From a virus (lineage: Duplodnaviria > Heunggongvirae > Uroviricota > Caudoviricetes), in IMG/VR virus record IMGVR_UViG_2600254997_000001: a stretch of DNA of 11,019 nucleotides, one strand, 5' to 3'. The number at the start of each line of letters is the position of its first letter. The first letter of the stretch is position 1. The translations under genes and the position numbers were made by a program. This document shows, one piece after another, positions 8,980 to 9,490 of this stretch. A model generated the notes under the pieces. That model was not told the DNA's origin. It saw only the letters and a program-made list of their open reading frames with translations, and searched no databases.

Positions 8980-9174
8980 TCATGAATAAACGCCTTGCTC
9001 TATTCGAAAAATGAGCATGGCAACTTTCAACGCCCCCTCTTCTGAGTCCATTATCTCAGAGGGCGTTTTCCACTGTAATGCTCTGTTTGGTTCATTGCAC
9101 CAGTTTAATGCTGCACTTTCGTTACCTTCAAAAAGATCAATAGCCTTTTGTATAACATCATTTTTTGTCAGCAT
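8980..9174 (-). CDS. DUF2384-like domain protein (C-terminal toxin-binding domain of Xre/MbcA/ParS-type antitoxins), encoded as a separate 64-aa ORF
   Basis: AALNWCNEPNRALQWKTPSEIMDSEEGALKVAMLIFRIEQGVYS follows the pattern A..W...PN..L....P.......G...V...I....GV that I recall for this domain (for example the MbcA C-terminus). It overlaps the 3' end of the upstream XRE gene by 17 nt across a T6/A6 run. Confidence 0.55.
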   Translation of the reverse strand: MLTKNDVIQKAIDLFEGNESAALNWCNEPNRALQWKTPSEIMDSEEGALKVAMLIFRIEQGVYS

Positions 9175-9490
9175 GTTTTACACCTGAACACGTTTTGAGT
9201 GCTTCGATAAGGCTACTTCGCTCTTCCTCTGTCATCCGGGATATGAGTAATGCAAGTTCTGCTGTTGTCTGATCATCACAAAAAAAGTAGTTCAACGGCA
9301 CGTTTAACTCTGCCGCCATCCTTCGAAGTGTATCAATATCGGGGACATGGCGTCCTTTCTCATAATGATTCATACGACTGCTAGCCGATGCGGGATCAAA
9401 GCCAACAAGGAGACCCAGAGAGCGCTGTGATAAACCCGCCCTGCATCTCGCTTCCTTAAGTCGTTCTGGTATCGGATTTTTTTCAGACAC
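9158..9490 (-). CDS. XRE-family helix-turn-helix transcriptional regulator (110 aa, GTG start)
   Basis: RLKEARCRAGLSQRSLGLLVG ... MNHYEKGRHVPDIDTLRRMAAELNVPLNYFF is a canonical XRE/Cro-C1-type HTH. There is no in-frame ATG between the GTG at 9490 and the upstream stop, so the start is GTG or another alternative codon. Confidence 0.75.
   Translation of the reverse strand: MSEKNPIPERLKEARCRAGLSQRSLGLLVGFDPASASSRMNHYEKGRHVPDIDTLRRMAAELNVPLNYFFCDDQTTAELALLISRMTEEERSSLIEALKTCSGVKHADKK

Follow-up and report, generated by a model that had tools for sequence, protein, structure and literature searches.

Two overlapping genes in a GInt-type island, a complete controller homologue and a predicted orphan DUF2384 domain, at a locus resembling a split RES-Xre antitoxin

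The regulator treated in this study is assigned to the controller proteins of restriction-modification (R-M) systems, for which C.Csp231I serves as the reference. C.Csp231I binds CTAAG-N5-CTTAG at two operators placed 18 bp apart (PMC4321490) and is known for both positive and negative control of its own promoter. A C.Csp231I-like Xre protein is also found in the type I-F3b Tn7-CRISPR transposons, where the distal box serves activation and the proximal box repression, and where this Xre control is proposed to lead to a burst of expression upon entering a naive host (bioRxiv 10.1101/2020.07.02.184150). Here, we describe a locus in the IMG/VR virus record IMGVR_UViG_2600254997_000001 (Caudoviricetes), a stretch of 11,019 nucleotides that was analysed as a whole and is referred to as the window, in which a gene of the XRE family (open reading frame (ORF) A) overlaps a small gene for a DUF2384 (PF09722) domain (ORF B). 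The pair adjoins ginD, the last gene of a GInt-type recombinase operon; in E. coli, GInts are known to carry defence systems (PMC10121019), and the cargo of these islands begins at the ginD stop (PMC5385486). A helix-turn-helix (HTH) domain that overlaps a DUF2384 domain resembles a broken RES-Xre antitoxin, but the HTH protein found here is, judged by its matches, a complete member of the R-M controller family. The pair is laid out as follows.

9158..9490, minus strand: ORF A, a 110-aa XRE-family gene with a GTG start (9490..9158), recognised with Pfam, PDB and PADLOC
8980..9174, minus strand: ORF B, a 64-aa PF09722/DUF2384 gene with an ATG start (9174..8980), recognised with Pfam
9158..9174, minus strand: the 17-nt overlap of ORF A and ORF B, containing the A6 run (T6 on the plus strand, 9161-9166)
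9178..9185, minus strand: start signals of ORF B, with a Shine-Dalgarno-like AGGTG (9185..9181) 6 nt before the ATG and a TAA at 9180..9178

The locus consists of two real and separate genes, the first of which is a complete controller homologue. An earlier reading of the window, referred to here as the original prediction, had pointed out the two ORFs and their 17-nt overlap at the A6/T6 run, and these coordinates were verified in every detail; its XRE HTH and DUF2384 calls were borne out by a Pfam profile search, which matched both ORFs. Its interpretation of the pair as one RES-Xre antitoxin split at the homopolymer is not supported, since ORF A is a complete controller with a different HTH and with homologues that are separate genes. 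ORF A and ORF B are already separate genes in the RefSeq annotation, and a near-identical locus is present in E. coli MB64 (99.9% identity over the 741-nt query). The length of the T6 run and the two-frame arrangement are the same across many independent assemblies, which include complete genomes, plasmids and metagenome contigs, and the arrangement is therefore not a sequencing error in the window.

ORF A is matched in Pfam by HTH_3 (E 7.5e-9) and HTH_19 (E 1e-8), and a Pfam match to PF20432, the HTH family of the canonical RES-Xre antitoxins, was not obtained at E<=1. Its residues 9-93 align with residues 4-88 of the 98 residues of PDB entry 3lfp, which is C.Csp231I (E 2.4e-22), and the PADLOC model Control_protein of the R-M systems is matched over model positions 2-93 of 101 (E 5.5e-26). 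A large protein search returned 679 homologues; among the 120 of these that were listed, most are stand-alone proteins of 100-117 aa, none carries PF09722 or is longer than 140 aa, and the few longer ones owe their extra length to N-terminal extensions or rearrangements. In an alignment of sequences from Enterobacterales, Vibrio, Shewanella and Alteromonas, the homology extends to about residue 100 and is followed by a short variable tail. This tail reads CSGVKHADKK in the window and is precisely the stretch that overlaps ORF B; in the 110-aa XRE subfamily, which is accompanied by a DUF2384 gene, the C-terminal tail is longer than in a 103-aa subfamily without such a gene. As far as homology can tell, ORF A is a complete C.Csp231I-class controller (C-protein-like) and not the N-terminal half of an antitoxin. 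It does not form part of an R-M gene cluster: it is followed by the DUF2384 ORF, ginD and a gene resembling vspR flank the pair, and the cargo is retron Ec78.

The two-gene layout recurs in E. coli chromosomes and plasmids and in Enterobacter, E. whittamii, Citrobacter, Pectobacterium and Kluyvera. Every intact copy of ORF B has its own AGGTG-N6-ATG and the TAA two codons upstream, and these signals are mutated in the decayed copies. A fused HTH-DUF2384 homologue was found neither among the 120 listed of the 679 ORF A homologues, nor among the 28 close ORF B relatives, nor among the best 150 of 398 representatives; in the first two of these sets the homologues are thus separate genes throughout, an outcome that the original prediction itself had counted against its view. 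Its further proposal of a frameshift-regulated gene found no support either, as no homologue in these sets is fused and some relatives retain both genes with an interrupted A6 run or with none. AAGAAA takes its place in Citrobacter (loci L042 and L044), and loci L030 and L050 lack the run; in Kluyvera (locus L007), which has no A6 run, the regulator stop is placed 4 nt before ORF B and the genes do not overlap. The split-antitoxin and frameshift options of the original prediction were dropped in this way, and its options of an orphan antitoxin-like gene and of a toxin-antitoxin (TA) remnant are retained. In the Enterobacter cloacae plasmid pNDM-1-EC12 (L047:4949-5168), a 1-nt deletion puts the DUF2384 frame into the frame of the regulator, behind the TGA and with no start codon; this copy is decayed and is not a fusion.

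ORF B is matched by the Pfam family PF09722 (Xre_MbcA_ParS_C) with E 2.6e-11 over model positions 2-51 of 51. The NCBIfam model NF049845 (Xre_ParS_antitoxin) is matched only in its C-terminal half (positions 55-112 of 112, with 54.9 bits against a cut-off of 90), and TIGR02293 likewise in the C-terminal half alone (39.5 bits against a cut-off of 57). A profile of the ORF B family matches the C-terminus of PDB 8gug_B (E 2.7e-6) and, weakly, MbcA. The polypeptide begins inside the helix preceding the PF09722 domain and carries no HTH. All 28 close homologues are 41-74 aa long; in an exhaustive representative search, the nearest representatives have 63-69 aa at 65-78% identity, and the canonical antitoxins of 140-170 aa appear at 55-60%. 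To the C-terminal domains of the canonical PF20432+PF09722 antitoxins, ORF B is 55-62% identical, and PF20432 stands directly before PF09722 in five of five canonical relatives. All intact copies of ORF B share an unchanged Pfam core, W..EPNRAL.WK, which is altered in most of the broken copies examined; this suggests constraint where ORF B survives. On the strength of these profile matches, ORF B is the toxin-binding domain of a RES antitoxin, an orphan without HTH and without toxin.

The absence of a RES toxin partner, which had been noted originally, was confirmed: with tblastn at E<=10, no RES-like ORF was found in the window or in the 28.7-kb stretch around the E. coli MB64 locus. Loci were compared in 26 genomic, 6 viral and 80 metagenomic cases, plus annotated matches. 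The canonical-type loci have open frames of 88-202 aa (mostly 147-174) with 55-62% identity to ORF B, the RES gene begins at the antitoxin stop (+173) in 88/88 loci, and a controller, a vspR-like gene or ginD was nearby in none. The mini-type loci have a product of 64 aa with at least 79% identity to ORF B and, wherever the flank is intact, the controller gene 316 nt upstream in the same geometry; a RES gene was present in none of them. The closest canonical antitoxins are found on 1,436 enterobacterial plasmids, including pLVPK (the knaAT locus), and the complete genomes closest to the window contain no enterobacterial-type RES-Xre locus.

Upstream of ORF A, two further elements belong to the cassette.

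9517..9531, no strand: proximal operator CTTAGattgtCTAAG, a perfect palindrome at -41..-27 from the GTG of ORF A
9551..9565, no strand: distal operator CTTAGcaatcCTAAG, at -75..-61 from the GTG of ORF A and -37..-23 from the ATG of the vspR-like gene

Both CTTAG-N5-CTAAG boxes are located in the 97-bp region between ORF A and the divergent vspR-like gene, with a spacer of 19 bp; two boxes were found where 0.14 are expected by chance. They occupy positions -41 and -75 in all relatives checked, including those with the 103-aa proteins of 63-65% identity, while the flanks vary, and the boxes overlap with promoter-like hexamers of both strands. A search of the window at <=2 mismatches gave no additional CTTAG-N5-CTAAG boxes beyond chance, for example before ginA. 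The layout is that of the C.Csp231I operators, with a different central base in the half-site (CTTAG here, CTAAG there). The upstream palindromes mentioned in the original prediction are real and conserved, and they can now be identified as controller-type C-boxes; by analogy with C.Csp231I and the Tn7-CRISPR Xre protein, we infer that the regulator binds them and follows the same regulatory logic.

The two genes of the pair differ in their rate of evolution. Pairwise ratios of non-synonymous to synonymous substitutions (dN/dS) are 0.06-0.30 for the regulator, which is 94-97% identical in Citrobacter and Pectobacterium, whereas ORF B is about 80% identical in those same loci. For ORF B, dN/dS is 0.23-0.35 versus Citrobacter and about 1-1.8 versus Pectobacterium, with estimates that are noisy at 64 codons. 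Related islands contain independent lesions of ORF B next to an intact regulator, namely a W25 to stop mutation, an ATG to CTG change together with an 11-nt deletion, and several separate 1-nt deletions; about 14 of 60 evenly spaced E. coli records have an annotated ORF B/DUF2384 gene. In the fetched loci, no correlation was evident between the integrity of ORF B and the type of cargo or the integrity of the vspR-like gene. Loci of the 103-aa subfamily have a VspR-like gene opposite the same operators and no DUF2384 gene, which argues for the DUF2384 gene as an add-on to an earlier cassette and not as a split-off piece. In two loci of this subfamily (L035/L031, around 3950-6312), the regulator/VspR cassette is flipped relative to gin, and a ResIII helicase gene comes after the VspR-like gene.

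The neighbourhood of the pair places it in a GInt-type island with the following features.

8429..8863, plus strand: ginD, which ends a ginABCD-like operon with three recombinase genes (3346-8863); its junction with the cargo is where the regulator cassette begins
8937..8965, no strand: hairpin with a perfect 12-bp stem (arms 8937-8948 and 8954-8965), predicted free energy (dG) -22.9 kcal/mol, z -4.9
9588..10148, plus strand: divergent vspR-family gene, 186 aa when intact, a pseudogene here owing to a GAA-to-TAA change at 9828-9830

The ginABCD-like operon at 3346-8863 encodes three tyrosine recombinases and a small protein, with PF00589 matches on the first two products; such a gene set is the distinguishing mark of GInt islands as described in PMC5385486, and the same four-gene gin layout is seen in relatives. 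As originally described, the downstream side of the pair consists of a hairpin, which was confirmed by computation, and the gin operon, whose last gene ginD is convergent; the hairpin stands between ORF B and ginD and is likely a bidirectional terminator. Between E. coli records, homology breaks off at window position ~8977, just past the ORF B stop. Within the islands, the genes are ordered as ginABCD, the regulator/DUF2384 pair, the vspR-like gene and a variable defence cargo: in this island retron Ec78 with PtuAB and an ABC-three-component (ABC-3C) system, in others type I R-M, helicases or NACHT proteins. The ORF at 10369-11019 (minus strand) is annotated in E. coli MB64 as the PtuB HNH effector of retron Ec78; PtuA, the reverse transcriptase and the ABC-three-component system are next to it in that genome and would lie beyond the end of the window. 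Compared with E. coli MB64, ginB (4818-6066) has a 277-bp deletion with a junction near 4870, flanked by a 7-bp repeat, and what remains are two overlapping ORFs (4818-5726 and 5491-6066); as a result, this copy of the island is probably immobile.

The vspR-like gene is present as two ORFs in the window, where RefSeq notes an "internal stop", and is intact in many related islands. The intact 186-aa homologue is 33% identical over its full length (E 2e-29) to a Pectobacterium protein of 199 aa with PF27213 VspR_N and PF27192 VspR_C. A search of the 186-aa protein against local Pfam, NCBIfam and PADLOC models gave no direct VspR match and only hints of a winged HTH (EarA-like, E 0.075; AbiEi, E 7e-4), and BLASTP detected no similarity to the 189-aa VspR-like protein of the loci with the 103-aa XRE, so that the two are linked only via the Pectobacterium protein. 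VspR is known to repress the CBASS operon of the Vibrio island VSP-1 (PMC10653837). Tandem cassettes occur in Citrobacter (L042/L043, ~5000-7600), where a 199-aa VspR-like gene facing a truncated XRE fragment of 62 aa stands beside a full 186-aa/XRE/DUF2384 cassette, which suggests an accretion of cassettes by recombination.

At the other end of the window, positions 1-3000 contain degraded genes of a filamentous phage, namely DUF2523 (366-653), Zot split into 665-946 and 1086-1538, and a pIV-type secretin split into 2001-2330 and 2333-2974. These genes belong to a decayed inovirus prophage that immediately precedes the GInt island. The island itself sits just after hipBA in related E. coli genomes.

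The explanation that we prefer is that the two-gene operon is the first cassette on the cargo side of a GInt-type island with anti-phage systems. Dimers of the controller would bind the two CTTAG-N5-CTAAG boxes and thereby regulate their own gene, with activation from the distal box and repression from the proximal one. The controller may also gate the divergent vspR-like gene, which would result in the burst-then-shut-off ("zygotic") control typical of controllers on mobile elements. ORF B would be translated separately, in a coupled manner, from its own AGGTG-N6-ATG, and would represent the C-terminal toxin-binding domain of a plasmid-type RES-Xre antitoxin that was captured without HTH or toxin. 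Where it acts, it is envisaged as a free-standing antitoxin that sequesters NAD+-degrading RES toxins provided in trans, such as those of pLVPK-type plasmids; such a benefit would be conditional, which fits the fast evolution and the repeated loss of ORF B. Taken as a package, a controller-regulated operon with a dispensable orphan antitoxin domain that neutralises RES toxins in trans appears to us equally open to holding and to failing, and much greater certainty attaches to its structural parts than to the role proposed for the small protein.

Several observations weigh against this explanation. On the side of the regulator, the half-site differs from that of C.Csp231I, and the binding specificity at the boxes is for this reason one that we infer. 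On the side of ORF B, the link to a RES toxin is one drawn from sequence, and an identity of about 60% to true antitoxins may be too low for cross-neutralisation. The AlphaFold2 model of ORF B has five short helices and a predicted local distance difference test score (pLDDT) of 73.9, and a Foldseek search of it against the PDB returned no meaningful match, so that ORF B lacks structural confirmation beyond its sequence. RES-Xre loci of the enterobacterial type are rare in E. coli (56/5,426 genomes) and mostly plasmid-borne. Intact ORF B and RES-Xre plasmids could be compared in just two overlapping E. coli strains, and both of these have a decayed ORF B, numbers too small for a test. Finally, a functionless relic would explain the frequent decay and the dN/dS near 1 just as well.

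Such a relic is the first alternative to be weighed. The 64-aa ORF would then be a leftover 3' fragment of a RES-Xre antitoxin that is still open by chance, with the controller as the only part that matters, and it could have been acquired at the ginD/cargo junction through illegitimate recombination, or be what is left of an ancestral controller-antitoxin-RES module after loss of the toxin. The several independent inactivating lesions next to an intact regulator are as expected from a relic, as are the dN/dS of about 1-1.8 in some comparisons, the position of ORF B exactly at the recombination breakpoint and the absence of RES nearby, and orphan antitoxins are common in enterobacterial genomes (PMC7192599). 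However, ORF B, its Shine-Dalgarno sequence and its ATG persist, at identities as low as 68-80%, in E. coli, Enterobacter, Citrobacter, Pectobacterium and Kluyvera, its W..EPNRAL.WK core separates the intact copies from most of the broken ones examined, and the dN/dS of 0.23-0.35 versus Citrobacter is low. We therefore consider a functionless ORF B possible but unlikely.

A second alternative assigns ORF B a role as a regulatory partner: the HTH-less DUF2384 protein would act as a co-repressor or anti-repressor of the controller or of the VspR-like protein and tune the expression of the cargo or the mobility of the island, as a non-covalent version of the HTH+DUF2384 architecture of the antitoxins. 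It is favoured by the recurrence of RES-less DUF2384 proteins after regulators (XRE here, vspR-like and DUF7661 elsewhere) and by the longer tail of the 110-aa XRE subfamily that accompanies the DUF2384 gene. A sign of co-evolution is lacking, however, as the regulator is 94-97% identical while ORF B is at 80%; repeated losses of ORF B leave the regulator and the operators intact, and in many cases the vspR-like gene as well, its state is uncorrelated with that of the vspR-like gene, and the 103-aa subfamily has the same operators without a DUF2384 gene. A partnership of this kind is improbable on balance.

The recurrence of such arrangements can also be read more broadly, with the HTH-less DUF2384 proteins as RES-independent small partners of island regulators (controller XRE, VspR-like or DUF7661) that act as anti-repressors or decoy sensors in defence islands and dif-region mobile elements. 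As decoy sensors they would be titrated by a RES/ART-fold protein of an incoming plasmid or phage, which would switch on the defence cargo or the mobility. The basis of this idea, which we regard as quite improbable, are three independent arrangements of a regulator followed by DUF2384 without RES, together with a fourth orphan beside a filamentous prophage. The examples outside the window are a vspR-like gene followed by a 107-aa ParS-like gene in Pectobacterium (L039:4668-5670), a 65-aa DUF2384 protein that comes after DUF7661 and before a SMODS+S_4TM CBASS (L053-L056), and a 107-aa DUF2384 copy beside the filamentous prophage (L062:5854-6177).

A single gene split by a frameshift, either through a mutation or assembly error at the A6/T6 run or through programmed +1 frameshifting or slippage that gives a 169-aa antitoxin, is very improbable and can be taken as largely refuted. 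It draws on the +1 offset of the frames and on the position of the A6 run immediately before the TGA stop, and the deletion of one T does join the ORFs as had been claimed, into a product of 169 aa (about 170 aa in the original prediction) that reads ...HADKNDVIQ... across the junction and keeps both Pfam matches. It is opposed by the identical sequence in many independent assemblies, by the lack of fused homologues in the sets compared above, by the broken run in Citrobacter and the absent one in Kluyvera with both genes intact, by the full length of ORF A relative to C.Csp231I and by the different HTH, PF20432, of the canonical antitoxins. A run of six A residues is also short for slippage. 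Equally remote from credibility is ORF B as a recombination directionality factor, i.e., an excisionase-like accessory for GInt excision and integration, an idea prompted by its position next to ginD and by a survey of integrative and conjugative elements that put the Pfam family DUF2384 among its "excisionase" profiles (PMC8138268), which was rejected since a minimal GInt with ginABCD and the element ends alone integrates and excises (PMC5385486) and most E. coli islands have a decayed ORF B, and which also conflicts with the flipped or relocated cassette in relatives and with bona fide RES antitoxins as the closest homologues.

Controller-type Xre proteins have been known on mobile elements, and neither GInt defence islands nor orphan antitoxins are new. 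In the GInt and defence-island papers searched, the combination of a controller with an orphan PF09722 gene and a VspR-like gene was not found described, and the GInt paper makes no mention of an XRE protein, a regulator or an antitoxin. The E. coli GInt defence islands share a conserved regulatory cassette made up of a controller with two C-boxes, a divergent VspR-like gene and an optional orphan antitoxin domain. Should the 64-aa protein neutralise the RES toxins of plasmids, the island would carry an anti-addiction or counter-defence factor directed at the system that stabilises Klebsiella virulence plasmids; should it be a relic, it would illustrate cleanly how a domain is captured and then decays repeatedly. 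In either case, the finding is incremental and only moderately unusual, and it does not add a new kind of system.

Among the described systems, C.Csp231I and C.EcoO109I (PDB 3lfp, 4jcx) share with ORF A the HTH_3 protein of about 100 aa with an extra C-terminal helix, at near full-length similarity. Two 15-bp palindromes of 5-5-5 layout, about 18-19 bp apart upstream of the own gene, and a downstream gene on the same transcript are common to this class and to our locus, which differs in having no endonuclease/methylase pair, a CTTAG half-site, a downstream gene of antitoxin type and a divergent partner of the VspR family. The Xre protein of the Tn7-CRISPR elements (Petassi et al.) represents the same controller class on a mobile element, again with two boxes upstream of xre and with the proposed burst upon host entry; unlike these elements, a GInt is not Tn7-like, the target operon is another one, and a DUF2384 gene was not reported there. 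With the RES-Xre TA systems (MbcTA, ParST, Xre-RES of P. putida and KnaAT of Klebsiella), ORF B shares the complete PF09722 domain including the terminal GVYS, but it has neither the PF20432 HTH nor a RES gene, it stays below the NCBIfam cut-off, and any DNA binding would come from the unrelated controller upstream. The order of a regulator followed by an HTH-less antitoxin is that of the three-component TA systems (omega-epsilon-zeta, paaR-paaA-parE), whose toxin gene is missing in every relative examined here. With the orphan antitoxins of mobile elements that serve in anti-addiction or counter-defence, such as chromosomal ccdA and the DarG-like proteins of phages (PMC11825919), ORF B has in common that it is toxin-less, borne on a mobile element, fast-evolving and patchy in its distribution.

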